Shown here: one piece after another, positions 3,135 to 55,455 of the stretch
How positions within the stretch are numbered: the stretch's first letter is position 1
How the letters are laid out: each line of letters starts with the position of its first letter
Source: a virus
Taxonomy: Duplodnaviria > Heunggongvirae > Uroviricota > Caudoviricetes
Reading direction: 5' to 3' (one strand)
Virus record (IMG/VR): IMGVR_UViG_3300021387_001477
Length of the DNA: 64,000 nucleotides
The notes under the pieces: generated by a model
Told to the model about the DNA's origin: nothing
The model's input: the letters and a program-made list of their open reading frames with translations, nothing else
Databases searched by the model: none
Made by a program: the position numbers and the translations under genes

Positions 3135-4799
3135 ATCCGTTGCTATAATCACTTTGCCAAATCTTGAATATCGTTTAATTTTTTCATATGCCTCTTCAGG
3201 ACTACTACACCCAGTGGTTACGTTGTTTACGTCAATTCCAAGTCCGATGACTCTGAATATAGTAAACAATTCTCTATTATCCATCATAGAATCAGCTGTA
3301 TCAGAAACTACATTCTTGACACGGCCTCTTAAAGGAATGACAGCCGTATACTTCGTACTCTTTCGTGCAGCCTTTAGAGAACCACCAGGAGATAGACCTT
3401 CAACTATAAATGCCTCACAGTCCCATCTTTCTCCAGGTCCGGCAGTTGCATCACTAAGTCCCTCAATCATCTCGGTCTTAGCTTTGTATACTCCACGACC
3501 AGCCGCTTCATCCATAATCCTCTGAGCTTTATCTGCAGCTCCTAAATTTTTCATAGAGTCCGCTAGATAGTTAAGTCTATCTACATGTGCATCCCAATAA
3601 TCTGGATTCTTCTTAAATATCTTCTGGAATTCTTTTACAATTGGATCAAAGTCTGACTGTTTAACTTTGGCGAAATTCTTTAGCTTCTCTTTTGTTTGGC
3701 TATTGAATACTGTTTCTGCCGCTAAAGCTACAACACACATCTTTAGTCCATTGGTTACGTACCTGTGTTTAATTCCATAGGTTTCACGAAGAGCCCTAAT
3801 GAAACAGTCCTCTACATAATTGATATGAACACCAGAGTCTACTACGAGCGAATTTACAGATCCACAATATTCCTTCGGGCTTAACTCTTCATCGACTCCA
3901 AAAGATACAAACAAGTCAATATATTCATTCATGCTAGTATCTTCTGGAATGATTCTCTTCATAAATTCAAACCCATAGCCAACAAACCCAGACCCCAAGA
4001 GCTCCTTTCCCTCAACTTCAATTCTTGCCTTTCTCTTATAAAATTTTTCTAAGATAAGTAAGAAATATTGAAGATTTTGAATAGGAACTGCCATCTTTTT
4101 GATAACAGCTGGTTCATAGATTTCGGGATCTGGTTTAAAAAGAATTATGGTTGACATACCACTAGGAAGCTGTTTTTCAAACTTTTTACCAAATGCTGCT
4201 TTTTCAAGATCAGCTTTCTTCATGGCTCCCTCATAGTATTTATATCCTTTCTTATACCAAACTATATAAAACAGATCTTTCTTACTCCTAGGTCCTGCAT
4301 TATTCCAGAGGTCATATACTGCTTTTGTAGATTTATCCCAGTTAAGAGGAGTAATTCTAGACATTAGTATATAATCTTCAGAAACTGCATTAACAGCACT
4401 AGAGCCAACACCATTCATTCCAACGGTTGCTACTTTACTGTCTGAAAATTTGGAACCAGAGTGAAGGGTACTTATAGATAGGTCCGCTTGAATAATTGGA
4501 GCTCCATCTTCCCCAATCTCTGATGAAGGGTATATTGGAATACCGCGCCCATCATCTGCAACCATAGCATAACCGTTCATATATCTATCAATGATTATAT
4601 TTTGGGCAGAATGATAGCACTCATCAACAGAGTTATCAATTATTTCTCTCAAAAGTGTATCACAGCTGTCAGTTCCCGAAAGATACATTCCGATACGCTG
4701 ACGTATAGCCTGTGGAAACTTTAAGAGTTTAATCTCATCTGGATTTTCTAAATTATTAAATTCATCATTCATATTATTATAAATTAAATTAATATTCAA
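3135..4799 (-). CDS. topoisomerase II large subunit exon 1: GHKL ATPase + TOPRIM (GyrB/T4 gp39-like)
   Basis: MNGVGSSAVNAVS (GyrB GLHGVG region), EGLSPGGS (TOPRIM EGDSAGGS), ends ...IIATD at splice site; in-frame stop 2 codons into intron. Confidence 0.85.
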
Positions 4800-4879
4800 A
4801 AATCTGAGAGAACACTTTTAATATTCCCTCAGATATAAGAAAATAACCTTCTTGGAAGAGCAAAAAAAAAGAATAGGGA

Positions 4880-5473
4880 TTATACTCCCCATTCTTCTGA
4901 TAATTCATATAAATCTACGACACTATCCCAACTCCCTCCGATTAGGCTTGGAGAGTGTGTTGCTATAATAACTTGGCCTGGATATTTACCTTCTGCCAAT
5001 ATCTTTTGAATGATATTTTGTACTCCTATATGTACATGAGTTTCTGGAAGATCAAAAAGCAATACTCCAGGAAAACAAGATAGATAATGAAGTACAAGAA
5101 GGGCATTATATTCACCAGGAGATGGAGGAAATCCCGTCTTCTTCTCAAGTGCTCCATTCTTTTCTATCCACTTATGCTCTAGGTAATCGTCATCAAAAGC
5201 CTCAGGAAATTTATTTAAAATATCTGAGGAAATTGGAACATTTTTATATGGATCTAAGAAATCACAGTAAAAGAATTTCTCTGGCTTATTATTTTTCCAT
5301 GTAAGCTCTAATTCCATTCCCTCGTCTGGACCATATGCTAAGGACCGAAGTAGGTGAGTTTTTCCATATCCATTCGGCCCAGTTACGAATGTCACTTTTC
5401 CTGGGAGCTTTATGTTTAGCTCTTTATCACCATAAATTAATGATTTCTTTATCTTTATCTTTTCTAGTTTCAT
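4880..5473 (-). CDS. small P-loop ATPase (ABC/RecF-like, AAA_21-type)
   Basis: Walker A GPNGYGKTHLL, Walker B LLFDLPE, ATHSP. Confidence 0.55.
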   Translation of the reverse strand: MKLEKIKIKKSLIYGDKELNIKLPGKVTFVTGPNGYGKTHLLRSLAYGPDEGMELELTWKNNKPEKFFYCDFLDPYKNVPISSDILNKFPEAFDDDYLEHKWIEKNGALEKKTGFPPSPGEYNALLVLHYLSCFPGVLLFDLPETHVHIGVQNIIQKILAEGKYPGQVIIATHSPSLIGGSWDSVVDLYELSEEWGV

Positions 5474-10385: not shown

Positions 10386-11894
10386 ATGGTTTGTAATGAA
10401 CTAAAAGACAAATTACCTGAAGGATGGAGAGAAAAATTTGTACATAGAGACTGTGACCAAGCTAACTATGAATTCGCTATGTTTGAGATTGATGGGAAGA
10501 ATAAGATACTAGTCCGAAACCCAGATACCGACGACATAATGGAATACTACTATGATGATTTTGATGAATGGATTGAGATAGATAAAAAAGTTATGAGATC
10601 TCTAATAAATAAAGACACAGAGTCCAAAGTTTATATTAGTCCTGATGGAAAGTATATAAAACATATTGGAAGAAAGAAAAGAGAACTATCTTCAAAATTA
10701 GTAGATAGGTGCCCGTACCCAATAATATCCATATGTAGTTGTCAAGTAAAAACCCACAGACTTATAGCTTTTATATTTATTCCAAACCCATATCCAGAAA
10801 AATATAATATAGTTAATCATAAAGATCTAAGCAGAACAAACTTTAGCAAAGAGAACTTAGAATGGTGTGATGCTAAATGGAATGCAAAAAGAGAGAATCA
10901 AAAGAAATATATTCCTGGAACAGTTTATGAAAGACTATCAGATGGGAGAAGATTTTCTTCTGCTGATTTGGCCGAAGAGTATAAGAATAAGCAATCAAGC
11001 TCGGCAGTTTTGGGAGCAATTAGCCGCGGAAAAACTTATCATGGGAGTACATGGAGAGTAATAGACCTTTCATTAGAAGATTATTTATCACGACACCCGC
11101 TGACAGATAGTTGGATCCAACACCCTACACTAAAAGATGTTTATGTAAATAGCTGTGGAGTACTTAGGATAAAAGATAAAATAGTTGTTGGAAATAAACA
11201 CGAGTGTTTATATTATTCAATAAGTATTGAAGGGAAACTATATAAGACCCACAGAATAATAATGGAAGCCATTCTTAATAGAGAGCTCCTAAACACAGAG
11301 GTAGTTGATCATATTATTCCTGTTTCTAAAGATGACATAAACAATGAAATATCTAATCTTAGAGTAGGAACGCAAAAAGATAACCTAAATAATGAACATA
11401 CACGTATTAAGTGGATTAAGAAGGGATCGCTTAAAAAATTTTCATTATTTGGTGACTTTGTAGAAGAATATAAAACTATAGATGATGCGCTTAAGGCGAA
11501 TAGTGAGATAAAAAGTAAAGTCTTGCTTATTAGGGCAACTGAGCTAGGCGCTGGAGCACTTATTTCTGCTGGAAACTTTCTCTGGTGTTTTGAAGGAGAG
11601 GAGGATAGAGTAAAAGATAGACTAGATTTTATATACTACAAAACGCCAGTAAACTCCTTAACAATAAAACCAGAATCCGCCTCAATAAATCTCAAAGATC
11701 TATCCAAAGAAATCCCAATTAATAAACTCAACAAAGTACTGAACACAGGATTTCCCTTAAATGGATACGTTTACCAGCGGGGAAAACCTAATGATATCCT
11801 CATTGATAAATCTAATACAGCATTGGAGAAGAAACGAGATAATATATCATGGAGAGAGTTTACAGGAAGAAATAAAAATAGAGAAGACAACTAA
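10386..11894 (+). CDS. free-standing HNH homing-type endonuclease (paralog of 1818..2981)
   Basis: Shared N-terminal region (YYYDDFDEW vs YFYDDINQEW) and HNH blocks (THRLIAFIF...N; THRIIMEAIL...DHIIP...N). Confidence 0.65.
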   Translation: MVCNELKDKLPEGWREKFVHRDCDQANYEFAMFEIDGKNKILVRNPDTDDIMEYYYDDFDEWIEIDKKVMRSLINKDTESKVYISPDGKYIKHIGRKKRELSSKLVDRCPYPIISICSCQVKTHRLIAFIFIPNPYPEKYNIVNHKDLSRTNFSKENLEWCDAKWNAKRENQKKYIPGTVYERLSDGRRFSSADLAEEYKNKQSSSAVLGAISRGKTYHGSTWRVIDLSLEDYLSRHPLTDSWIQHPTLKDVYVNSCGVLRIKDKIVVGNKHECLYYSISIEGKLYKTHRIIMEAILNRELLNTEVVDHIIPVSKDDINNEISNLRVGTQKDNLNNEHTRIKWIKKGSLKKFSLFGDFVEEYKTIDDALKANSEIKSKVLLIRATELGAGALISAGNFLWCFEGEEDRVKDRLDFIYYKTPVNSLTIKPESASINLKDLSKEIPINKLNKVLNTGFPLNGYVYQRGKPNDILIDKSNTALEKKRDNISWREFTGRNKNREDN

Positions 11895-11912
11895 ATCTTC
11901 TCTATTTCTTTT

Positions 11913-12323
11913 TTATCTAATTCTTCTAAACCTAACTACGTACTTGCTTTCATCTCTCCTAACTTGGGCCCCTTTTTCTCGAATGAATCTAAGAATTGGA
12001 TGGGTAATCCAGTTAGGAACTAAATCCTCTCGTTTAGTATCACACTCTACTTTAAGATCTTTGCAATTCATAATCTTATCATACATTCTTGTCATTGCAT
12101 ATGCACTCCCCTCAAATTCGATTGTATTTTCATCAATCATTTTCATAGGCATAGCACATTCATATGCATCCCCAGCTAATAGATCAAATAATAACTTAAT
12201 CTTTGGCCCATAACTCGCACAATATGACGTGTAATACTGATCATAGAACTTTCTAATCTCAAATATCTTAGAAGTTGGTACATAGTTTGTATTTGAATCC
12301 GTTATTACTTTATGTTTCCACAA
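11913..12323 (-). CDS. DNA polymerase A, terminal exon (motif C region and C-terminus)
   Basis: CASYGPKIKLLFDLLAGDAYECAMPMKMIDE ~ T7 gp5 LQSAGALICKLW...AYMAWVHDE; ECDTKREDLVPNWITHP ~ T7 DTEGKMGPNWAICH; preceded by intron S-element and G. Confidence 0.65.
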   Translation of the reverse strand: MWKHKVITDSNTNYVPTSKIFEIRKFYDQYYTSYCASYGPKIKLLFDLLAGDAYECAMPMKMIDENTIEFEGSAYAMTRMYDKIMNCKDLKVECDTKREDLVPNWITHPILRFIREKGAQVRRDESKYVVRFRRIR

Positions 12324-12640
12324 AGACTAGACTATATCATTATCCATATTTCAGGATAGATCGCGCTTCGAGAGCAGGACTTTCACCTGATCTCTACTTC
12401 CTTTCAGAATAGTCGTTACACCTTCCATTTCTGGCTTGGCTCGGGATTAGCATGCATTTCTGTTTAGCTTTCCCCGATAGCAAGATTTCTCTCACACCCT
12501 ATATTTCTAGGTTCACGATCTTTTGCACTCTAGAATTACCCCTAGAGGCCACAATTTTACTTATGGACTACAATAATTGGTTGGAGTGGTTGTTTCCAGC
12601 CCTCTTGTATTGATTCACGTATATTATTAAAGAATCCTGA
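12324..12640 (-). mobile_element. group I intron in polA (canonical core); 5' boundary approximate
   Basis: CGGGGAAAGCTAAACAGAAATGCATGCTAATCCCGAGCCAAGCC ... GTGTAACGACTATTCTGAAAGG ... AATGATATAGTCTAGTC ... G| then exon. Confidence 0.55.
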
Positions 12641-12669
12641 GGCCATGATTGAGGCAGTGCCACCTTGTC

Positions 12670-12700
12670 GTTATTACTTTATGTTTCCACAAAGACTAGA
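12670..12700 (-). repeat. duplicate of the 31-nt intron-3'-tail/exon-start sequence CTAGTCTTTGTGGAAACATAAAGTAATAACG (other copy 12298-12328)
   Basis: Exact-looking repeat directly after a second intron S-element but not followed by coding sequence. Confidence 0.5.
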
Positions 12701-12925
12701 TCATATCATTATCCACATTCATGGATAGGCTGCGCTTCGGAATACAGAATTTCACTGTAAACCTACTCCTTTCGGATGATCGTTACACTTTCTCTATCTC
12801 TAGAGCTTAGCACGGGATTGGCATATTATTACTAACTTAGCTTTCCCCGTTAGCAAGATCTCTCACACCTAAGATTTCTTAGTTCACAGCCTGTTTCATA
12901 TAGGATTACTCCTATAAGCTACAAT
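12700..12925 (-). mobile_element. group I intron in polA (canonical core); boundaries approximate
   Basis: CGGGGAAAGCTAAGTTAGTAATAATATGCCAATCCCGTGCTAAGC ... GTGTAACGATCATCCGAAAGG ... AATGATATGATCTAGTC. Confidence 0.5.
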
Positions 12926-13209
12926 TTTATTTATAGGAAGATTCACGCCTAATCTTTCACACCTCGCCTTTAGATTATTCTTCTCTCTGGAATTTGCTTT
13001 TAGCCACAGATCATATTCTTTAATTTTTAATTTATCGCCCATTATTGAATTAATATATCCATCATGGCTAAATGGATACTGTTGTTGAGAGGCCACATAC
13101 TCTCTCAATTTAGGGAAACTTGTATAAAGTCCCTGTATAATATCATCAGCTTCCTCTTCTGAGCAAAATAGTCTTTCAGCCAATGATTTCTTTCCTAGAC
13201 CATAAAGAA
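12896..13209 (-). CDS. DNA polymerase A internal exon (palm: end of motif B to QG region); true 3' splice end near 12926
   Basis: SLAERLFCSEEEADDIIQGLYTSFPKLREYV ~ Klenow [31 protein letters not shown]; ...ARCERLGVNLPIN ~ AAERAAINAPMQG; naive join to micro-exon is out of frame by one nt (see findings). Confidence 0.6.
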
Positions 13210-13464
13210 CCGTTTTGTTATCCTAGAAGTTTTTTTATCTCCTAGCTCTAGTAATTCATTTCTTACTAGTCCAGCATATATTTTCAACTCATATTTTCGA
13301 GTTGGTGGGCTCTCTTGGAAGGATTATATTTATTCACCTTCTATGCGTTACACTAGATTAAAGCCTCTCGCAATCTTTAACCTTAGCACGGGGTTTGGAT
13401 TCTCACCATTCACCGTTTTAGTCCACTTATCATCTATAATATCACTACTATAGACGGCATTTCT
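13210..13464 (-). mobile_element. family-B small group I intron (copy 2), 255 nt
   Basis: GTCTATAGTAGTGATATTATAGATGATAA...ACGGTGAATGGTGAG...GTAACGCATAGAAGGTGAATAAATATAATCCTTCC...GGATAACAAAACG; >80% identical to copies at 13485, 14242, 26113, 29352, 55218. Confidence 0.65.
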
Positions 13465-13484
13465 ACCTAAGAAGACAGTTTTGA
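13465..13484 (-). CDS. polA micro-exon (~20 nt, TCAAAACTGTCTTCTTAGGT) encoding core of polymerase motif B (KTVFLG ~ T7 AKTFIYG)
   Basis: Sits between two tandem family-B introns; with upstream exon gives RKRSF|KTVFLG; exact splice points uncertain. Confidence 0.45.
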
Positions 13485-13739
13485 CGTCTGTTATCCTATA
13501 GGCTTTTTATCCTATAGCTCTATTAGTTCATTTCCTAATAGTCCAGCATATATTTTCATCATTTCTTTTATGATGTCGAGCTCTCGTGGAAGGATTATAT
13601 TCTATTTATAGTTTCACCTTCTATGCGTTACGCTGCTATAGACTCTTTATTTCTATAGTTAGCACGGTATTAGGAATCTCACCCTTCACCGTTTTAGCTC
13701 GATTATCATCTATAGTATCACTACTATAGACGGCCCAAA
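13485..13739 (-). mobile_element. family-B small group I intron (copy 1), 255 nt
   Basis: Same conserved 5' GTCTATAGT..TATAG module, core and 3' GGATAACAGACG. Confidence 0.65.
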
Positions 13740-13740
13740 A

Positions 13741-13830
13741 TGACCTTTTTCTCCACATCTTCTTGTCTTTCTTGTCTAGTTTATCAAATTTATCGCCTAG
13801 ATAGAGCTTGGCGGTATATATATAACAATG
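13741..13830 (-). CDS. polA exon fragment (...TAKLYLGDKFDKLDKKDKKMWRKRS); 5' boundary unknown
   Basis: Open frame upstream of intron B1 ending in R-x-x-x-(F)K that completes motif B with the micro-exon. Confidence 0.35.
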
Positions 13831-13849
13831 TGTTCAGAGAGTGTCGTTA

Positions 13850-14143
13850 CTTCTCTCTGGTTCTCTTATGAACTCCTGTATATTTCTATACAGATCAGAC
13901 TATATCTTCACCTCAATACCGAGGGCTTACCGTTTCCACTACACGAACTTTGTAGTGTACTCTCTTTCGAGATAGTCGTTGGGGTTTTGATACAGAGCTA
14001 GTTAGTCATACTAGCCTTAATTTTATAAATATTTATCAAAACCTGCTGATTGGCCTTATTCTTTGATTTCTTACGGAAGTGACTAAATCTTCTCGTACCA
14101 AAGACTTAACGGGCGTTTCCAGCATTTAGTAAGTTTATTTTTC
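13850..14143 (-). mobile_element. group I intron (family C-like) in polA; boundaries approximate
   Basis: CAACGACTATCTCGAAAGAGAGTACAC ... GAAGATATAGTCTGATCTGTATAGAAATATACAGGAGTTCATAAGAGAACC tail (tail duplicated at 14530-14570). Confidence 0.45.
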
Positions 14144-14144
14144 T

Positions 14145-14241
14145 TGGGATCACTCCCAAGCGATACTTAAATCTAATATCTTCGCCTTTATTAAACTTAT
14201 CAATCAAGTCGGGATCTCCGCTTGCGAAACCTGCAGCTTTT
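14145..14241 (-). CDS. polA exon fragment between motifs A and B (KAAGFASGDPDLIDKFNKGEDIRFKYRLGV...)
   Basis: Follows G of intron B3; resembles Klenow LLTAFAEGKDIH region; ends at 20-nt hairpin repeat CTTGGGAGTGATCCCAAG. Confidence 0.4.
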
Positions 14242-14498
14242 CAGTTATGTTATCCTAAGAGCTTTTTATCTCTTAGTTCTATAGATTCTTATTTATATTC
14301 TCTATAGCTCGGCGTACATTTTTAACTATCGCTAGTTATCGGACACTCTTGGAGATACTATATTTATTCAATCTCTACGCTCTACATTACTAGAGTGCCT
14401 TTCGAAATCACTCTAGTTAACTCGGTATTTAGATTCACACTATTTACCGATTTTGCCCGATTATACTCTATAGTGTTTCCACTATAGACGGCATTTCT
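14242..14498 (-). mobile_element. family-B small group I intron (copy 3)
   Basis: GTCTATAGTGGAAACACTATAGAGTATAATCG...CGGTAAATAGTGTGAATC...GTAGAGCGTAGAGATTGAATAAATATAGTATCTCC...GGATAACATAACTG. Confidence 0.6.
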
Positions 14499-14509
14499 AC
14501 CTCTGCACT

Positions 14510-14741
<232 letters not shown>

Positions 14742-17423
14742 TTAGTTTTTCTTGGGATCACTCCCAAGTGACACCAATAATTTATTTTCAATGTCAAAAT
14801 AAGTTTCAATAAAGTCTTCATCTACTATATTCCCATTCTCGTCAATATGATATGGCGTTCGAACACAATCTTTAAAATCTGCATGACTAACCAAGACATG
14901 GAACGCACTAGACCACCTCTTTGAACTCTTTGTGTTGACCTCATAATGACAAAAGCATTTATGTACTGCTCCTGGCTCATTAGGGTCAGCTTCACGAATA
15001 GGAATATGTTTTTCGTCCTCAATTACCCACTTTCCCTCTTTCAGCATTCCATCAATATAGGTCGATAGAACCTTTGAATATTTTTTGAAGAGCAGATAAT
15101 TGATGACCATTTTTCTCATAAAATAGAATCTGTTATCAAAGTCAGATTCATTGAAGATCTTTCCATAATCTTCATATTGATCAGAAACATACTTAAAGAA
15201 CTGTTCCTGAGCGATATATCCATTAAAGTTACTCCACACCTCTTTTACCTGATCACATCCTAAGTCATTATAGAATTGATCAAACAGGACATATACTTTT
15301 TCTGGATAACTGGTTTGCCCTACTGGAGTTCCTTGATAAAGTTTTGTATAGTTCTCTCCAAAATGAGCAAATCCATCTTCAACTGTTTTTATACCGAGTT
15401 GTTCATAATATTTTTCTGCGCCTGGAAGTTGCTGCGCACTTTCAAACATTGCAGCGAGATATGCAGACTCGGTAGGATACAGTTGAGCAAATTCCAAACA
15501 GATCTCATCATTTTCAATGGGGGACTTACACTTAAAGAAGTTATCCGATACATAATCTGAATAACTAATTAAATCCCATTTTTGTCCAAATGCATAGATC
15601 TCTTGAGGAATGTTTTGTATGTCATTAAGTTGATTCTTTGAGACTTTCATTAACTCATTGAACGCTCTTTCATAATATAGATACTTCTCAAGCTCTATGT
15701 GTTTGTCATTTATCTTTATTTTATCTAGTCCGATTATAGGAATTAGTTTATCTCCCAAGACCTGTTGGATCTTCTTCTTTCCGCCAATTCCTGAATCAAT
15801 CTTAGACTTCAATACTTTCTGACCTGTTTTCTTATAGAGTTTTATCATTCCTACCTCTTCCATTGCTTCTCTTAGGACTTTCATAAAATTGGTAGCAAAG
15901 TCTGGACCATACTTCATTAATAATTGGCCCTCGTTTATACCAAGTTCATAAGCATCCATAGTATCAACATTAGAAGTCAGAAGATACTTAGCTATTTCAG
16001 CCGGATTTCCATTAAAGAAGGTATTATCATGCAGCAGTTTCTTGGCAATATCAGAATAATTATCTATATTTGCCATCTTTTTCTTGTGCTTATCCATCTT
16101 TATTTTACACCTAGCTTCACTACAAAACGTAATGCTCCACGCAATCATCTCTTTCGACTTCTTTTCATACTCCAATCTAAATGGCTCGTCAATATATAGG
16201 CCACAATTATGAAGTCTGGCGCCCAATCTTGCATTATCCATAAAGGTTCTAATACAATCTTCAGAGAATTTATCTTTCTCTACCAGATGTATCATAAGAG
16301 TATAGAAAGCGTCAAGATTACAATAATACCCTAATATTTCTGATGGAACACACATAAATGAACTCTTGTCCCAGTATTCAAGTATTAAAGCTTCAAATTC
16401 ATTTATATAACTTGGGTATCTTGCGCATATCTCAGCCCATTCCGGAGTTGTTTTAAAATCAGAGGGAGTAATTTTTAGAACTTTCTTCTTATCTTTCTTA
16501 AGTTTCCCTACTTCTTCATAAAACATGCTTTCAACAAGATCTGAGATTCTGTCAAACTCGGTATCCCAGACAGTAGCCTGAAGTATCATTTGGGCTGACC
16601 ACTTTAAGGAATATTTCTTTAAGTGATTTCCCTCAATGACATTATAAACAGACGCATCTATAAGATTATATAGGTCTACTCCAAACATTCTATGAGATAC
16701 GGCCTGTTCATATTGCATATTATAAGTTACAAGATGACTCTGCCTATGATTCAAAAAATCTCCAAATCTTTTACATATCATTCCGTATTGTTCAGGACTA
16801 CATGTATGTCTAAGATCTGTAAAACTTATAAATCCTCCGAAGTTTTTTGTACACAGTGATGCCCCAGATATATCAAACCATACATCCAAAGCCATACCAG
16901 ATGCCTCGAAGTCAAAGCCTAGGTCCTCAGTCTCTGGAAGATTACAAAGCCAGTCTAAAAATTTCATTGCTCCAGTAAAATCATGAATAACTTTACTTTG
17001 GAACCAGGAAAAATCAACGGGCTGTGTAAATCCTGGAGACATAAAATCTCTAATTATGTCTGGAGAAGGAGGATCTAGAACTACCTTAACAAAAGCTCCG
17101 CCCTCTATACTTAACCTTCGAAGTTTGGACACATCGAAGTAATTCTCTGACCTAACCCCAAAGTGATAGAACTGGTTTAGATATCGATAAGGTTCTGCCC
17201 CCACCAACATAACAGCATCACTTGGGCCTAATGTCAGAAACTCTCTTTTTGCATCATCGGACATAGATTCAATATTCTCAACCGTAAAGATCTGAGATGA
17301 ATCCAGCCCTATTCCATAATAATCCACCACGTAATTTGGTGTTTCTTTAGCTGAAATTAATACAAATCGTTTGTTCATAAATCTAAATATTAATATACCT
17401 TTGAGCCGATATCTTACATACAC
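14742..17423 (-). CDS. DNA polymerase A exon 1 (N-terminal region incl. 3'-5' exonuclease-like domain, no polymerase motifs A/B/C)
   Basis: 893-aa ORF; GFDFEASGMALDVWFD exo-like block; last codons overlap the 20-nt hairpin repeat so true 5' splice site may lie slightly upstream of the stop. Confidence 0.65.
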   Translation of the reverse strand: MYVRYRLKGILIFRFMNKRFVLISAKETPNYVVDYYGIGLDSSQIFTVENIESMSDDAKREFLTLGPSDAVMLVGAEPYRYLNQFYHFGVRSENYFDVSKLRRLSIEGGAFVKVVLDPPSPDIIRDFMSPGFTQPVDFSWFQSKVIHDFTGAMKFLDWLCNLPETEDLGFDFEASGMALDVWFDISGASLCTKNFGGFISFTDLRHTCSPEQYGMICKRFGDFLNHRQSHLVTYNMQYEQAVSHRMFGVDLYNLIDASVYNVIEGNHLKKYSLKWSAQMILQATVWDTEFDRISDLVESMFYEEVGKLKKDKKKVLKITPSDFKTTPEWAEICARYPSYINEFEALILEYWDKSSFMCVPSEILGYYCNLDAFYTLMIHLVEKDKFSEDCIRTFMDNARLGARLHNCGLYIDEPFRLEYEKKSKEMIAWSITFCSEARCKIKMDKHKKKMANIDNYSDIAKKLLHDNTFFNGNPAEIAKYLLTSNVDTMDAYELGINEGQLLMKYGPDFATNFMKVLREAMEEVGMIKLYKKTGQKVLKSKIDSGIGGKKKIQQVLGDKLIPIIGLDKIKINDKHIELEKYLYYERAFNELMKVSKNQLNDIQNIPQEIYAFGQKWDLISYSDYVSDNFFKCKSPIENDEICLEFAQLYPTESAYLAAMFESAQQLPGAEKYYEQLGIKTVEDGFAHFGENYTKLYQGTPVGQTSYPEKVYVLFDQFYNDLGCDQVKEVWSNFNGYIAQEQFFKYVSDQYEDYGKIFNESDFDNRFYFMRKMVINYLLFKKYSKVLSTYIDGMLKEGKWVIEDEKHIPIREADPNEPGAVHKCFCHYEVNTKSSKRWSSAFHVLVSHADFKDCVRTPYHIDENGNIVDEDFIETYFDIENKLLVSLGSDPKKN

Positions 17424-21927: not shown

Positions 21928-22225
21928 GGTCCATTAATTCAGTGGTTAGAATGGCTGACTCATGATTATTACGATTGTGTGCTTAGGAAGGAAACGCCTA
22001 AGTAGATTCCCCCAAATTCGGTGAAAGCTAAGGAGAAATCTATGCTAATACCGAGCCAAGCAGGTATATATAATAAATACTGGGCGTGTGTAGAGACTAG
22101 ATGGAGGAGGCCTAAGTAGAAATATATGGTCGTGGTATAGTCCAGTTCAGCAAACATGAAATTATGGCACGAAAGTGTAGTTGAAACGAATCAGTAAGTC
22201 GCAGGTTCAAATCCTGCATGGACCA
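21928..22225 (+). tRNA. tRNA-Met/Ile (CAU) interrupted by a 225-nt group I intron (21964..22188) between positions 36 and 37
   Basis: Exon1 GGTCCAT..GCTGA-CUCAU (ends in U); exon2 AA-TCAGT-AAGTC-GCAGGTTCAAATCCTGC-ATGGACC-A; intron ends in G. Confidence 0.7.
21964..22188 (+). mobile_element. group I intron (ORF-less) in tRNA-Met
   Basis: TTCGGTGAAAGCTAAGG...GCTAATACCGAGCCAAG...TGTAGAGACTAGATGGAGG (R element)...GGTATAGTCC (S element). Confidence 0.75.
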
Positions 22226-22296
22226 CAAATAAAAAATCTAATAGTCCGATAGCTAGAGATATCGTCTCTCGGACTATTTTCGAAACAATAACAGAC

Positions 22297-22596
22297 GGCC
22301 CGATAGTTCAGAGGATAGAACGACAGCCTTGAAGCGCTAAAAATGATATTAGCATTAGGAGTGCACTGAGGGAAACTTCAGATGTAGAACTCTTCAAATT
22401 CGGGGAAAGCGTAATAGCCAATCCCGAGCCAAGCCTAGAAAATCGTTCTAGGAAGGTGTAGAGACTAGACGGAGAGGGCCTAAAAGATTATTTGATAATC
22501 TCATGGTCAAGGGATAGTCCGAGATGAGAATTATTATTAATTATTCTCATTGAGCTAAGCTGTAAGTCCTGCGTTCGAATCGCAGTCGGGCCGCCA
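22297..22596 (+). tRNA. tRNA-Arg (UCU, inferred from splice rules) interrupted by a 224-nt group I intron (22331..22554); CCA encoded
   Basis: GGCCCGA-TA-GTTC-AGAGGATA-GAAC-G-ACAGC-CUU|intron|CUAA-GCTGT-AAGTC-CTGCG-TTCGAAT-CGCAG-TCGGGCC-G-CCA; anticodon assignment depends on exact junction. Confidence 0.6.
22331..22554 (+). mobile_element. group I intron (ORF-less) in tRNA-Arg
   Basis: GAGTGCACTGAGGGAAACTTCAGATGTAGAAC...TTCGGGGAAAGCG...CCCGAGCCAAGCC...GGTGTAGAGACTAGACGGAGAGGGCCTAA...GGGATAGTCCGAG. Confidence 0.75.
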
Positions 22597-25593: not shown

Positions 25594-25665
25594 GATCCAT
25601 TAGTTCAACGATAGAACAACTGTCCCTAAAACAGCACGTTGTCGGTTTGAATCCGACATGGATCA
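25594..25665 (+). tRNA. tRNA with anticodon CUA (amber-suppressor-like; anticodon loop CCCUAAA with C33 and a 27-43 mismatch)
   Basis: GATCCAT-TA-GTTC-AACGATA-GAAC-A-ACTGT-CCCUAAA-ACAGC-ACGTT-GTCGG-TTTGAAT-CCGAC-ATGGATC-A; otherwise canonical 72-nt cloverleaf. Confidence 0.5.
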
Positions 25666-25702
25666 CAAAGGACCTAAAATCCTTATAAAAGAAAATAAAT
25701 AA

Positions 25703-25857: not shown

Positions 25858-25878
25858 CAATCGAAACAAAATAACAAC

Positions 25879-25938
25879 GGAAAGTAGTGCTAACGGCGAC
25901 TTTTAATAGGGTATGTAGTTCGATGCCACTGCTTTCCG
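25879..25938 (+). pseudogene. 60-nt truncated tRNA-like element (acceptor GGAAAGT/GCTTTCC paired, too short for a cloverleaf)
   Basis: Acceptor-like pairing and TTCGATG T-loop-like block but missing arm(s); same acceptor design as following tRNA-Ser. Confidence 0.3.
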
Positions 25939-25950
25939 CAAAAACTATAT

Positions 25951-26038
25951 GGAAGGTTATTTCACCCGGCGGTGGACCTAGTCTTGAAAATTAGTGGTAC
26001 GTAAGCATTCGTATGGGGATCGACACCTCAGCCTTCCG
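25951..26038 (+). tRNA. tRNA-Ser (UGA), type II with long variable arm
   Basis: Acceptor GGAAGGT/GCCTTCC, anticodon stem CTAGT/ATTAG loop CUUGAAA, variable stem TACG/CGTA, 88 nt. Confidence 0.5.
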
Positions 26039-26057
26039 CTCAAAACAAAATAACAAT

Positions 26058-26390
26058 CGGGATGTAGCGCAGTTGGTAGCGCATGTGGTTTGGGACCACA
26101 GGGTCGCAGGTTTATTTTTACAATGGACGTCTATAGTGGAAACATTATAGAGAATAATTGGGCAAAAACGGTGAAGGCTGAGATTGCTAACGCCGTGCTA
26201 ACTAGATATATTGCGAAAGGATATCTAGCAGCGTAACGCATAGGAAGTGAATAAATATAATCTTCCCACGAGTGTCCAACAGCCACAGTAGATGTGGTTG
26301 AAAACGTATGCTGGACTAATACAAAATGAAGTATTAGAACATAGAGATAAAAAGCTTTATGGTTAACATTCGCGAGTCCTGTCATCCCGA
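26058..26390 (+). tRNA. tRNA-Pro (UGG) interrupted in the T-loop by a 260-nt family-B group I intron (26113..26372)
   Basis: Exon1 CGGGATG-TA-GCGC-AGTTGGTA-GCGC-A-TGTGG-UUUGGGA-CCACA-GGGTC-GCAGG-TT (ends U); exon2 CGAGT-CCTGT-CATCCCG-A restores T-loop TTCGAGT and acceptor; intron ends ...AACATTCG. Confidence 0.7.
26113..26372 (+). mobile_element. family-B small group I intron in tRNA-Pro T-loop
   Basis: GACGTCTATAGTGGAAACATTATAGAG...ACGGTGAAGGCTGAGATTGCTAACGCCGTGCTAACTAG...GCGTAACGCATAGGAAGTGAATAAATATAATCTTCC. Confidence 0.65.
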
Positions 26391-26411
26391 CTAAAAGAAA
26401 ATAGGTAGAAA

Positions 26412-26990
26412 TTGAATCTACCTATTATTTTCCTTATTTATGTTATGAAGAGTATAATTGAAAAACTAGAATTACCTAATCTTAATAAGAAGAGAGATTG
26501 GAAAGCTGAAGAAATCAAAGAACTTCATGAGAAAGTCGAGACCTATGTGAGAGAACTGGAGAACTATACTGACAAACTGCACGGTTTAGTAGTTAAAGTA
26601 GTTAACATTCCAAAGATGAAGGAACTCTTGGGTGAATTTTTTAACAGTCATCCAGAAATCAAGTTTATAGGGTTTGTTAATCGTGTTTGTGGAGATGACG
26701 ACTCTGGAAATTGTTCTTGGGAAGACTCTGAATGGGATCAAATCTTCATAGACAATAACGATGAAGTAGTTGAGATATCCAAAGAGCAACTTTCAGAACA
26801 TATCAGAGAGCAGGCAAGTGATCTGTTTACTGAATCTTTCCCAGGGCTTTCTTTTGATGGTGGAGACAATGCATCTTGGGATTCGAGAGCTGATCAATGG
26901 TATGGCATAACTCGTGATATGAAGCCAGCATTTTGGGCAGATTATGACGAAGATGAAGATAATGATACTCCAGTTTTTGAAATTATTTGA
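26412..26990 (+). CDS. hypothetical acidic protein
   Basis: 192-aa ORF. Confidence 0.5.
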   Translation: MNLPIIFLIYVMKSIIEKLELPNLNKKRDWKAEEIKELHEKVETYVRELENYTDKLHGLVVKVVNIPKMKELLGEFFNSHPEIKFIGFVNRVCGDDDSGNCSWEDSEWDQIFIDNNDEVVEISKEQLSEHIREQASDLFTESFPGLSFDGGDNASWDSRADQWYGITRDMKPAFWADYDEDEDNDTPVFEII

Positions 26991-28852: not shown

Positions 28853-28900
28853 AAAATTGTAGACTCGGCTTGGTGGTGGAATGGTAGACACGAGGGACTT

Positions 28901-29319
28901 TAACGTTACTTAAAGGGAAATTATTTCCAACTTATTAAGTATAATTTGAGTGCACTGAAGGAAACTTTAGATGTAGAACCTCCCTAATTCGGTGAAAGCT
29001 AAGCGCAACGCTGCAAAACGCTCCCTGAAATACGGTTAGCGCCTATAGGATAAAGATGCGTATAAATTGCGTATGCTAATACCGAGCCAATGTTTAAAGA
29101 CAGTGTGTAGAGACGAGATACGGGAGGGACCTAAGTTGAAATTTATAAACGTAGTGGGTGGGAATTACCACGTTAAATCCAAAACCTGAGATAAAAGGCA
29201 TTTATAATCTTGCAAGATTTCAATATGGTTAAGATACAGTCCAGACCACAAACAGATTAAGAGCAGAACCAACCTGTATATCAAAGATTTAATCTGGTAG
29301 CGAAAGCTATAGTGGTAAG
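28901..29319 (+). mobile_element. group I intron at the classical tRNA-Leu(UAA) U34/A35 site
   Basis: GAGTGCACTGAAGGAAACTTTAGATGTAGAAC...TTCGGTGAAAGCTAAGC...ACCGAGCCAATG...GTGTAGAGACGAGATACGGGAGGGACCTAA...GATACAGTCC. Confidence 0.65.
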
Positions 29320-29351
29320 AAAATCCCTTGGGCAGAAGTGCCCGTGTGGGT

Positions 29352-29605
29352 TCTCAATCGAGCCGTCTATAGTGGAAACATTATAGATTATAACTGAGCA
29401 AAATCGGTGAAAGCTGAGATGCCAATACCGAGGTAACTATGGGAATATCGAAAGGTCCTATAGCACCGTAGAGCATAGAAGGTGAATAAATATAATCCTT
29501 CCAAGAGTGTTCAGCATCATGGAAGAAGTGATGAAGATATATGCCGAACTATTAGGAAATGAACTAATAGAGCACAGAGATAAAAAACTCTGTGGATAAC
29601 AAATT
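29352..29605 (+). mobile_element. family-B small group I intron in tRNA-Leu T-loop
   Basis: Near-identical to 26113..26372 and 55218..55455 copies; ends GGATAACAAATTG. Confidence 0.6.
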
Positions 29606-29697
29606 GTCGAATCCCATCCGAGCTACAATATAGCCCTGAAATAGTAAAAACGCTATTTTCAGGGTTTCTTTTCCTTATTAATGAAAGGATATCAATT

Positions 29698-36336: not shown

Positions 36337-37887
36337 ATGCTAAAAGAAAAAGTATTATATTCATTGCGGGATATTTCTATAATTCCCGCAGTATCGACTA
36401 GTATTAGATCAAGAAAAGAATGTGACCCCTATAGAAAAAGTATAGAGGGAGAACCCGGATGGTACCCTTTGATTGCCTCTCCTATGGACTCTGTTATGGA
36501 TGATACGAATTGGAAATATTACTGGGATAATAAAATATCCTGTGTTATTCCAAGATCTATCCCACAGAGTTACCAAGAAAAAGGGTATGAGGATGGAGGA
36601 TATGAGGCTTGGTTTGAAGAAAGGAGAAAATTATGCTCTAAGGTATTTTGTGCATTTAGTTTGAAGGAAGCTAAGTGGTTCCTGGATAACTCTTATGACT
36701 ATAGTGATAAAAGCTTTAGTGATGGCCTGAGGATTTATGTCTTAATTGATATAGCCAATGGTAGTATGCAAGAGGAGATAGACCTTGGAAAAGAACTAAA
36801 GAGGAAGTATGGAGAAGGAATAATATTAATGGGAGGAAATATTGGAAATCCCCAGACGTACCTTCTTTATGATCAAGCCGGGTTTGATTTTCTTAGAGTG
36901 GGAATCGGAAGCGGACAGGGGTGTTTAGCCGGAAATACTAAAATTCCCATGTCTGATGGAACTACAAAGAATATAAAGGACTTAGTTGTTGGCGATCATA
37001 TTAAGACTATTACAGGAGACCAAAGAGTCAATGAGATTATACAAAATACCTCTGATCAGTTAGTAACAATAAATAAAGAACTGACATGTACACCAAATCA
37101 TAAATTATTTGTAATTGACAAAGACAACGGGGATCTAGTGACTAAAGAAAATATAATTTCCTTAGGACATTATGTAGAGGCTGGAGACCTAGATAAGGGG
37201 AAACATTTATTAGTCAAATTAAAGACGGAAAATTTAAAGGAAAAACTTAATAACAATATAGGATTTAATAACCCCTATAAAGCAATGGATTTTAGGCTTG
37301 AAGAAATAACCTCAATAGAAAAGATTGAAAAAGCCGTATCTACGTTTGATATAGTAGTTTCCGGAGAAGAGCACTCATTTATTACAGAGGATGGATATAT
37401 CGTTCACAACTGCCTAACTTCCACCTCAACGGCAATCCACTATCCTTACGCATCTCTGATAAGTGAAATATCTGAAATGAAGGATAGATATCATAGTCAC
37501 TGTAAAATTATAGCCGATGGAGGAATGGCATGGTATAGCGATATAATTAAGTCTCTTGCCCTTGGTGCTGATTATGTTATGTGTGGAAAAATATTCTCAC
37601 AGGCAGCAAAGACACCAGAAGAAGTAGGCCAGACATTGGTATATCGAGGAATGTCTACTAAAGCTGCTCAGGCTGGGATGGGGAATACAGGAACTCTTAA
37701 GACCGCCGAAGGAAAGAGTATGGAAGTCGTGAAGGAATATACTCTCTCGGGGTGGACGGAAAACTTTGATTCTTATCTCAGAAGTGCTATGTCCTATTGT
37801 GACTCTAGATCATTGAAAGAATTTAGGGAAAAGGCCATATGTCAGGTTATCTCTCCGAACGCCTCTTCACAAATAAATAATAAATAA
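36337..37887 (+). CDS. GMP reductase/IMP dehydrogenase-family (GuaC-like) protein interrupted by a mini-intein
   Basis: VGIGSGQG-C[intein]-LTSTSTAIHYPYASLISEI and IIADGGMAWYSDIIKSLALGADYVMCG match IMPDH/GuaC active-site loop and ADGG/ALGA motifs; extein ~353 aa. Confidence 0.6.
   Translation: MLKEKVLYSLRDISIIPAVSTSIRSRKECDPYRKSIEGEPGWYPLIASPMDSVMDDTNWKYYWDNKISCVIPRSIPQSYQEKGYEDGGYEAWFEERRKLCSKVFCAFSLKEAKWFLDNSYDYSDKSFSDGLRIYVLIDIANGSMQEEIDLGKELKRKYGEGIILMGGNIGNPQTYLLYDQAGFDFLRVGIGSGQGCLAGNTKIPMSDGTTKNIKDLVVGDHIKTITGDQRVNEIIQNTSDQLVTINKELTCTPNHKLFVIDKDNGDLVTKENIISLGHYVEAGDLDKGKHLLVKLKTENLKEKLNNNIGFNNPYKAMDFRLEEITSIEKIEKAVSTFDIVVSGEEHSFITEDGYIVHNCLTSTSTAIHYPYASLISEISEMKDRYHSHCKIIADGGMAWYSDIIKSLALGADYVMCGKIFSQAAKTPEEVGQTLVYRGMSTKAAQAGMGNTGTLKTAEGKSMEVVKEYTLSGWTENFDSYLRSAMSYCDSRSLKEFREKAICQVISPNASSQINNK
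36922..37410 (+). mobile_element. mini-intein (163 aa, no homing-endonuclease domain) in the catalytic Cys loop of GuaC-like protein
   Basis: Begins CLAGNTKIPMSDGTTKNIKDLVVGDHI (Hint block A), ends ...FITEDGYIVHN followed by extein Cys. Confidence 0.6.
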
Positions 37888-55217: not shown

Positions 55218-55455
55218 AAATGATTTGCCGCATTATATAATGATACTTCGGGTAAAAACGGTGAAGGGTGAGATTCCTAATACCGTGCTAACTACTGTAA
55301 TTACGAAAGGTATAGTAGTAGTGTAGAGCATAGAGGTTGAATAAATATAATACCTCCAAGAGTATCCGACATAGAGATATGAAAATATATGCCGAACTAA
55401 TACGAAATGAAGTATTAGAACTATAGGATAAAAAGCTTATAGGATAACAAAATTG
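55218..55455 (+). mobile_element. family-B small group I intron splitting the helicase Walker A motif; begins AAATGA (in-frame stop)
   Basis: ACGGTGAAGGGTGAGATTCCTAATACCGTGCTAACTAC...GTGTAGAGCATAGAGGTTGAATAAATATAATACCTCC...GGATAACAAAATTG; join gives TSYG|KTELIA = GxxxxGKT. Confidence 0.65.

Follow-up and report, generated by a model that had tools for sequence, protein, structure and literature searches.

A phage tRNA-Pro(UGG) gene probably split in its T-loop by an ORF-less IA-like group I intron

To our knowledge, every group I intron described so far in a tRNA gene occupies the anticodon loop, with no gene holding more than one, and most of these introns are of the IC3 type. The known hosts, of bacterial, plastid or CPR origin, are the genes for tRNA-Leu(UAA), tRNA-fMet, tRNA-Ile(CAU) and tRNA-Arg(CCU). 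Archaeal tRNA introns interrupt the D-, anticodon- and T-loops, up to three per gene, but these short introns of the bulge-helix-bulge type depend on a protein endonuclease and a ligase for their removal; no ribozyme is involved, and neither sequence nor mechanism links them to the element analysed here. Insertion of group I introns into a T-loop has hitherto been seen as a peculiarity of tmRNA. Williams and co-workers (PMC11915505) have presented 883 sequences of group I introns located in tmRNA T-psi-C loops, distributed over four subsites and described as self-splicing. In that study the introns of subsite 3 all come from Bacteroidia and those of subsite 2 from Anaerolineae, with one exception. 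In a full-text literature search, which covers few subscription journals and is suggestive only, T-loop group I introns were described for tmRNA only, and there was no report of a true tRNA with such an intron in its T-loop, nor of a tRNA gene with two group I introns.

Many ORF-less group I introns, several of them in one gene, are found in intron-rich phages, as exemplified by td, nrdB and sunY of T4, orf142 of Twort and the crAss-like phages. In the zeta-group of crAss-like phages, group I introns and inteins reach what has been called an 'unprecedented density', and the same work describes suppressor tRNAs (Yutin et al., bioRxiv 10.1101/2020.07.20.212944). These reports on intron-rich phages concern protein-coding genes and mention no tRNA interrupted outside the anticodon loop.

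In this work we have analysed a phage tRNA-Pro(UGG) locus and its surroundings in a window of 64,000 nucleotides (the whole stretch of DNA examined), which is part of a 317-kb contig (ENA ERZ12302816 NODE_16). Like the intron-rich phages listed above, the window has many ORF-less group I introns, and it shares with the crAss-like phages the combination of introns, an intein and a suppressor tRNA, here tRNA(CUA); the contig exceeds the 145-192 kb given for one crAss-like group (Yutin et al., bioRxiv 10.1101/2020.07.20.212944). The locus very probably represents a functional tRNA-Pro(UGG) gene in which an IA-like group I ribozyme without an ORF separates U55 from C56. Judging by its sequence, the insert belongs to the group I class, is homologous to the T-loop introns of tmRNA and resides in a new kind of host gene. 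It has in common with the tmRNA introns, as described in PMC11915505, the same loop of a tRNA-shaped domain, the U at position -1, the omega G and the P7.1 hairpin; by our own reading of the numbering used there, subsite 3 lies after U55, where the tRNA-Pro copy is inserted, and subsite 2 after U54, the position of a second copy in a tRNA-Leu gene. The hosts in the window are phage-encoded elongator tRNAs with anticodon arms, unlike the bacterial tmRNA. From the classical tRNA introns, of which the window also has three, these T-loop introns are set apart by their site, by a different, IA-like ribozyme family and by the presence of two introns in one gene.

The interrupted tRNA-Pro(UGG) gene

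The locus (26058-26390 of the window, plus strand) reads CGGGATG TA GCGC AGTTGGTA GCGC A TGTGG TTTGGGA CCACA GGGTC GCAGG TT, then 260 nt, then CGAGT CCTGT CATCCCG A. As read from the sequence, the 5' exon (26058..26112, +) comprises the 5' strand of the acceptor stem, the D-arm, the anticodon arm with the loop TTTGGGA, the variable loop, the 5' strand of the T-stem (GCAGG), U54 and U55. The 3' exon (26373..26390, +) supplies C56-U60 (CGAGT), the 3' strand of the T-stem (CCTGT), the 3' strand of the acceptor stem (CATCCCG) and the discriminator A73; the CCA end is not encoded. The preliminary description had taken the locus for a tRNA 5' portion ending in GCAGG-TT, followed by 260 nt and by a 3' part that exactly completes the molecule, and its coordinates and length proved exact: when 26112 was joined to 26373, ARAGORN called a tRNA-Pro(tgg) of 75 nt, a canonical cloverleaf with the UGG anticodon, a 7-bp acceptor stem, the T-loop TTCGAGT and a 5-bp T-stem. 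In the unspliced segment 26058-26390 neither ARAGORN nor Rfam found a complete tRNA at normal thresholds, and the Rfam tRNA model matched the 5' part alone (25.4 bits). When, as a control, all 12 introns of the window were deleted one at a time and the flanks joined, a junction-spanning tRNA was obtained for three, namely the tRNA-Pro insert and two anticodon-loop introns; the eight protein-gene introns gave none. The T-loop intron of the tRNA-Leu gene yielded no tRNA in this single-deletion scan because a second deletion is needed there.

The in silico spliced tRNA-Pro aligned over 73/73 nt with uninterrupted annotated phage tRNA-Pro genes at up to 89% identity, and at least 80% of the query was covered in 413 records. 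The exact junction GCAGGTTCGAGTCCTGTCATCCCG without the insert was present in 11 IMG/VR contigs, and these empty-site alleles fix the insertion point between U55 and C56. Such agreement is well outside what chance could produce. The T-arm and the 3' strand of the acceptor stem are identical to those of uninterrupted phage genes; every stem of the exons is paired, and the conserved bases of the T-loop, D-loop and anticodon loop are intact. The spliced sequence also has C1-G72, A73, G35, G36 and G37, features of bacterial tRNA-Pro which we take to be identity or modification elements (E. coli ProRS, TrmD). A terminator-like hairpin of 10 bp, followed by a T-rich tail, lies directly 3' of the gene (26400..26436, +).

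Exons without any defect are hardly what a dead gene would be expected to retain. Under that reading a mobile group I intron or its DNA copy would have landed in the T-loop of tRNA-Pro, the tRNA being either unmade or unneeded and the host tRNA-Pro serving in its place. It could draw on the two degenerate-looking tRNA-like sequences just upstream, on the short exon part of P1, on the finding that the matches listed include no orthologous intron-bearing tRNA-Pro in another phage, and on a tRNA-Leu relative (L081, see below) with an unexplained 86-nt insert. Besides the intact exons and the T-arm and acceptor strand shared with uninterrupted genes, it is opposed by the terminator after the gene, by an intron that keeps its core positions and has a guide sequence specifically adapted to G53-U54-U55, and by the compensatory exon changes in a pair of tRNA-Leu genes, which point to selection on the spliced product. 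On balance we consider a dead tRNA-Pro gene unlikely. A second, intact tRNA-Pro gene may lie in the part of the 317-kb genome beyond the 64 kb examined here.

The sharpness of the junctions bears equally on the possibility that a repeated element was misjoined into a tRNA gene during assembly. Six copies of the element are present in the window, and short contigs from other samples end near 26051-26054, as might be expected of an artefact. However, identities of just 66-77% among the six copies leave them too diverged to mislead an assembler. The element is inserted with single-base precision, exon, intron and exon are covered at 100% identity by two independent assemblies (Logan SRR873601 and GCA_001684375.1), and a third assembly at the locus ends inside the intron. 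A misassembly is thus scarcely credible, and a true interruption of the tRNA-Pro gene is the reading followed below.

Fold, boundaries and proposed splicing of the intron

The insert (26113..26372, +; 260 nt, no ORF, omega G at 26372) was assigned to a group of introns designated family B by covariation, Rfam RF00028 and nhmmer/BLAST family searches. RF00028 matched it in the P1-P9 layout with 26.1 bits (E 1.4e-4 in a local 601-nt search), below the gathering score of 50, and the other family-B copies of the window gave sub-threshold scores of 20.7-31.1 bits. Since these hits are sub-threshold, the fold was tested directly by covariation. A conserved-core pattern retrieved 54 IMG/VR loci, in which an HMM built from the 6 window copies delimited 63 introns; the covariation alignment comprised 49 distinct family-B sequences in 390 columns. 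On this alignment 95.5% of the 3217 cells of the group I structure are standard pairs, and compensatory changes on both sides occur in 54 of the 67 pairs, from P2 to P9.1 and including the P3/P7 pseudoknot. P3 is paired in 99.4% and P7 in 100% of cases, with A-U replaced by G-C in P7 of 22 of the 49 sequences. None of 500 shuffles was as good, and sliding the partners by 1-3 columns reduced pairing to 30-41%. The low RF00028 score is a matter of insensitivity of the detection model to the family-B subfamily and not a biological criterion.

In the tRNA-Pro copy (all elements on the plus strand) the P1 hairpin at 26110..26128, read from the sequence, pairs G53-U54-U55 and the following U-A-U (26110-26115) with the guide sequence A-U-G-G-A-C (26123-26128). 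The P2 hairpin (26131..26150) has 8 bp and a GAAA loop, and all eight pairs show changes on both sides. The remaining helices were placed by the covariation alignment. P3 (26158-26164/26273-26279, span 26158..26279) encloses P4 (26168-26173/26191-26196), P5 (26176-26178/26186-26188), P6 (26197-26199/26230-26232), P6a (26202-26209/26221-26228), the 5' strand of P7 and P7.1 (26243-26247/26262-26266). P7 (26238-26242/26307-26311, span 26238..26311), presumed to be the guanosine-binding helix, crosses P3 to form the group I pseudoknot, and P8 (26280-26287/26293-26300) lies within its span; P9 (26316-26322/26331-26337) and P9.1 (26340-26346/26355-26361) together span 26316..26361. The P3/P7 pseudoknot, P7.1 and every family-invariant core position are kept in this copy. 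P7.1, a hairpin between P7 and the 3' strand of P3, is taken as the sign of an IA-like subgroup. The longest open stretch in the sense direction has 40 codons in the tRNA-Pro copy and at most 41 in any copy, so no homing-endonuclease gene is present. Public gene calls put an 84-aa ORF antisense to the tRNA-Pro intron (26131-26385, -); the antisense open stretch, which has 51-79 codons among the copies, is probably a by-product of an A-rich intron.

The sole boundaries that restore a 7-nt T-loop place U55 (26112) at -1 and G26372 at the end of the intron, so that both group I boundary rules, a U at -1 and an omega G, are obeyed. U55 is wobble-paired to G26126 in P1 and is flanked by the pairs U54-A and G53-C, the exon part of P1 amounting to 3 bp (G-C, U-A, U-G), and G26372 is aligned with the terminal G of other family-B members. 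By eye, no convincing complement to CGAGUC that could form P10 adjoins the guide sequence; many group I introns have a weak P10 or lack it altogether. Across family B the guide triplet covaries with an exon triplet 9-16 nt upstream: the common combination is GCC/GGT, the tRNA-Pro copy has GAC/GTT, two members (L003, L051) have GTC/GAT and one (L005) has GGC/GCT. Guide and exon triplets match in 18 of 45 members within the short flank available. Many of the family-B introns at the IMG/VR loci L002-L055 have coding sequence for ...IYLDRKY... in front of them, and the nearby flank contains no GGT exon triplet to match the guide. The covarying group I fold, the sub-threshold RF00028 match, the -1 U, the omega G and the restored T-loop uphold the earlier view of the insert as a precise intron in the T-loop of tRNA-Pro(UGG), whose excision we infer from the sequence.

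Splicing may be envisaged as follows. In the primary transcript the guide G26126-A-C would pair with G53-U54-U55 and create P1 with its U55-G wobble; as U54, U55 and the 5' strand of the T-stem would be held in P1, the T-stem would not yet be formed at this stage. The core would fold into P3-P8 with the P3/P7 pseudoknot, joined by P7.1, P9 and P9.1, and a free guanosine bound in P7 would attack the bond after U55. The terminal G26372 would then take the place of the guanosine, and the 3'-OH of U55 would attack the bond before C56. Ligation of the exons would restore the T-loop TTCGAGT and let the T-arm fold, so that before ligation there would be neither a T-arm nor its elbow interaction with the D-loop, and the enzymes that modify U54 and U55 would have no substrate. 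Processing of the tRNA ends, CCA addition, modification (m5U54, pseudouridine 55) and charging would presumably follow. A precursor with its T-arm blocked until splicing would be well suited to a study of the order in which folding, RNase P cleavage, CCA addition and modification of U54 and U55 take place.

The guide sequence also suggests a likely reason for residence in the T-loop. In family B the guide is mostly GCC and would need an exon ending in GGU, which the near-universal G52/G53-U54 of T-arms could provide. This supply would apply to tRNA-Leu and tmRNA; in tRNA-Pro the guide GAC appears shifted by one base and matches G53-U54-U55. Such a match would be a simple reason for recurrent landing sites in T-loops, and possibly in D-loops, and would tie the tmRNA introns to a phage reservoir.

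The fold and the boundaries of the intron weigh against processing without self-splicing, either by a protein enzyme in the bulge-helix-bulge style or from split tRNA halves kept in contact by base pairs. Protein-spliced introns do occur in the T-loops of archaeal tRNAs, several per gene; we know of no splicing endonuclease from bacterial hosts or phages. A precedent for the split form is found in the permuted two-piece tmRNAs, which exist according to PMC11915505. The full group I core with its strong covariation and the boundaries marked by the -1 U and the omega G point elsewhere, and a bulge-helix-bulge motif is not needed to explain the data. Protein-based or split processing is consequently very improbable, and self-splicing of a group I intron is the preferred reading.

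Other intron copies and tRNA genes of the window

Two of the six family-B copies in the window are in T-loops, that of tRNA-Pro after U55 and that of tRNA-Leu(UAA) after U54. The remaining four lie in protein genes, three in the gene for a family A DNA polymerase and one at 55220-55455, which makes T-loops a recurrent but not the sole site of the family. The proposal made earlier that family B targets T-loops can thus be kept in part: it agrees with the two tRNA copies and goes too far in view of the four copies in protein genes and of the approximately 80 family-B copies fetched from IMG/VR, of which one, among the matches listed, is in a tRNA. The polymerase gene (about 11900-17423, -) has 7 group I introns, 4 detected by Rfam and 3 of family B; one of its exons (13474-13484) is 11 nt long, and the joined C-terminal exons match Pfam DNA_pol_A with 60.5 bits.

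The tRNA-Leu(UAA) gene (28867..29625, +; exons 28867-28900, 29320-29351 and 29607-29625) is missed by standard tools. It contains a classical anticodon-loop intron at the U34/A35 site (intron A, 28901-29319, +; 419 nt, after U34, RF00028 41.6 bits) and a family-B intron in the T-loop (29352-29606, +; 255 nt, after U54, RF00028 31.1 bits), separated by a middle exon of 32 nt. After removal of both, ARAGORN called a tRNA-Leu(taa) of 86 nt, of class II and with A73. The split GGGT/...TTG/TCGAAT is the only one in this T-loop that obeys the rules of a -1 U and an omega G. A degenerate tRNA-like minihelix was considered as the host of 29352-29606 and dropped once a second intron was recognised, with the 5' half on its far side, about 450 nt upstream; a tmRNA was rejected as host on the grounds of the anticodon arm, the C3-G70 pair and the lack of an ARAGORN tmRNA call, ARAGORN having found no tmRNA in the window. 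One tRNA gene can thus hold two group I introns, both presumably spliced, and a ribozyme family known from tmRNA is found in the T-loops of ordinary tRNAs as well. The family-B copies of tRNA-Pro and tRNA-Leu are 71% identical, no closer to each other than to the polymerase copies, and on these identities we rejected the ideas that T-loop introns form one clade or that the two copies are recent duplicates.

The three classical anticodon-loop introns are placed after U34 in tRNA-Leu(UAA) and tRNA-Arg(UCU) and after U36 in tRNA(CAU). The tRNA(CAU) gene (21928..22226, +) is interrupted at 21964-22188 and the tRNA-Arg(UCU) gene (22297..22596, +) at 22331-22554; both introns are about 225 nt long and score just below the threshold in Rfam (48.3 and 49.7 bits, respectively). 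Four tRNA genes of the window identified here were missed by ARAGORN and Rfam, and since standard tools miss intron-split tRNA genes, tRNA counts for intron-rich phages are too low.

Two further tRNA-like sequences, also missed by ARAGORN and Rfam, lie between tRNA-Ala and tRNA-Pro (25878-25939 and 25952-26039, +). The first shows a terminal helix of 12 bp and a TTCGATG loop, but no clear cloverleaf. The second can be drawn as a cloverleaf: its D-stem has 6 bp and closes a 4-nt loop, its anticodon loop is CTTGAAA (UGA), its variable arm is long and its T-stem has 4 bp. The suppressor-type tRNA with the anticodon CUA (25594-25666, +) is labelled 'Pyl' by ARAGORN, and open-frame statistics gave no signal of TAG recoding in the window. 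The Hint/intein domain is contained in an IMPDH/GMP-reductase-like ORF (36337-37887, +).

Relatives in other phages and in bacterial tmRNA genes

Relatives of family B were found in crAss-like, Clostridioides, Bacillus and Staphylococcus phages. The exact 5' exon of the tRNA-Pro had no match in IMG/VR, the ORF downstream of the gene led to no relatives there, and the 63 IMG/VR family-B introns, when scanned for junction-spanning tRNAs, gave none. An ORF within the tRNA cluster led to one distant phage (L001, 47% aa identity), in which the region is without introns and without tRNA-Pro. IMG/VR, metagenomes and genomes were also scanned with a junction pattern composed of the intron 3' end and the 3' half of the T-loop, the resulting counts being lower bounds. 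It recovered at least one phage tRNA (L081) and at least three bacterial tmRNA genes (L166, L257 and L284). The latter have family-B-like introns after U54 of the tmRNA T-loop, with nhmmer E values of 6e-31 to 5e-18 and 49-67% identity.

The phage tRNA belongs to a 262-kb jumbo-phage contig (L081, IMGVR_UViG_3300011005_000050), where a tRNA-Leu-like gene at 4596-5317 has a family-B intron after U54, the subsite used in the tRNA-Leu of the window. The acceptor stems of the two genes (GGCGCCA/TGGCGCT in L081 versus GGCTTGG/CCGAGCT in the window) and their T-stems (ATCGG/CCGAT versus GTGGG/CCCAT) differ by five double changes that preserve pairing across the introns. Such compensatory changes in the exons argue for selection on the spliced RNA. 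The T-loop introns themselves are only 63% identical, so shared descent of the insertion is not established. The L081 gene is interrupted twice more. Its D-loop has a 285-nt group I-like insert after G18-G19-U20, with a GCC guide triplet and a core like that of the tRNA(CAU) intron of the window, and its anticodon loop has an 86-nt insert that starts with a perfect 6-bp hairpin (GGACTT/AAGTCC). For the latter, no join both obeys the group I rules and yields the anticodon UAA, and given this unexplained insert the L081 tRNA-Leu gene may be decaying.

It is tempting to speculate that in a jumbo-phage lineage group I introns have colonised all the loops of tRNA, the D-loop after G18-G19-U20, the anticodon loop and the T-loop, by way of conserved GGU motifs as P1 targets, so that two or three ribozymes in a gene would need a workable order of splicing and might be more than selfish DNA. 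We regard this as a rather doubtful proposition. If it were true, the introns could gate the maturation of phage tRNAs according to the level of guanosine nucleotides or the time after infection, or they could protect phage tRNA genes and precursors against nucleases, from the host or a competitor, for which tRNA loops are the recognition site.

Another phage (L446, IMGVR_UViG_3300027804_000038, 294 kb) carries at 11400-11910 an HNH-endonuclease-like ORF and a tRNA-Pro(UGG), followed directly by a 25-nt duplicate of the 3' part of tRNA-Pro. The sequence of this duplicate is exactly that of the T-arm and acceptor strand in the spliced tRNA-Pro of the window, and the duplicate looks like the scar of an endonuclease-driven gene replacement at the same tRNA.
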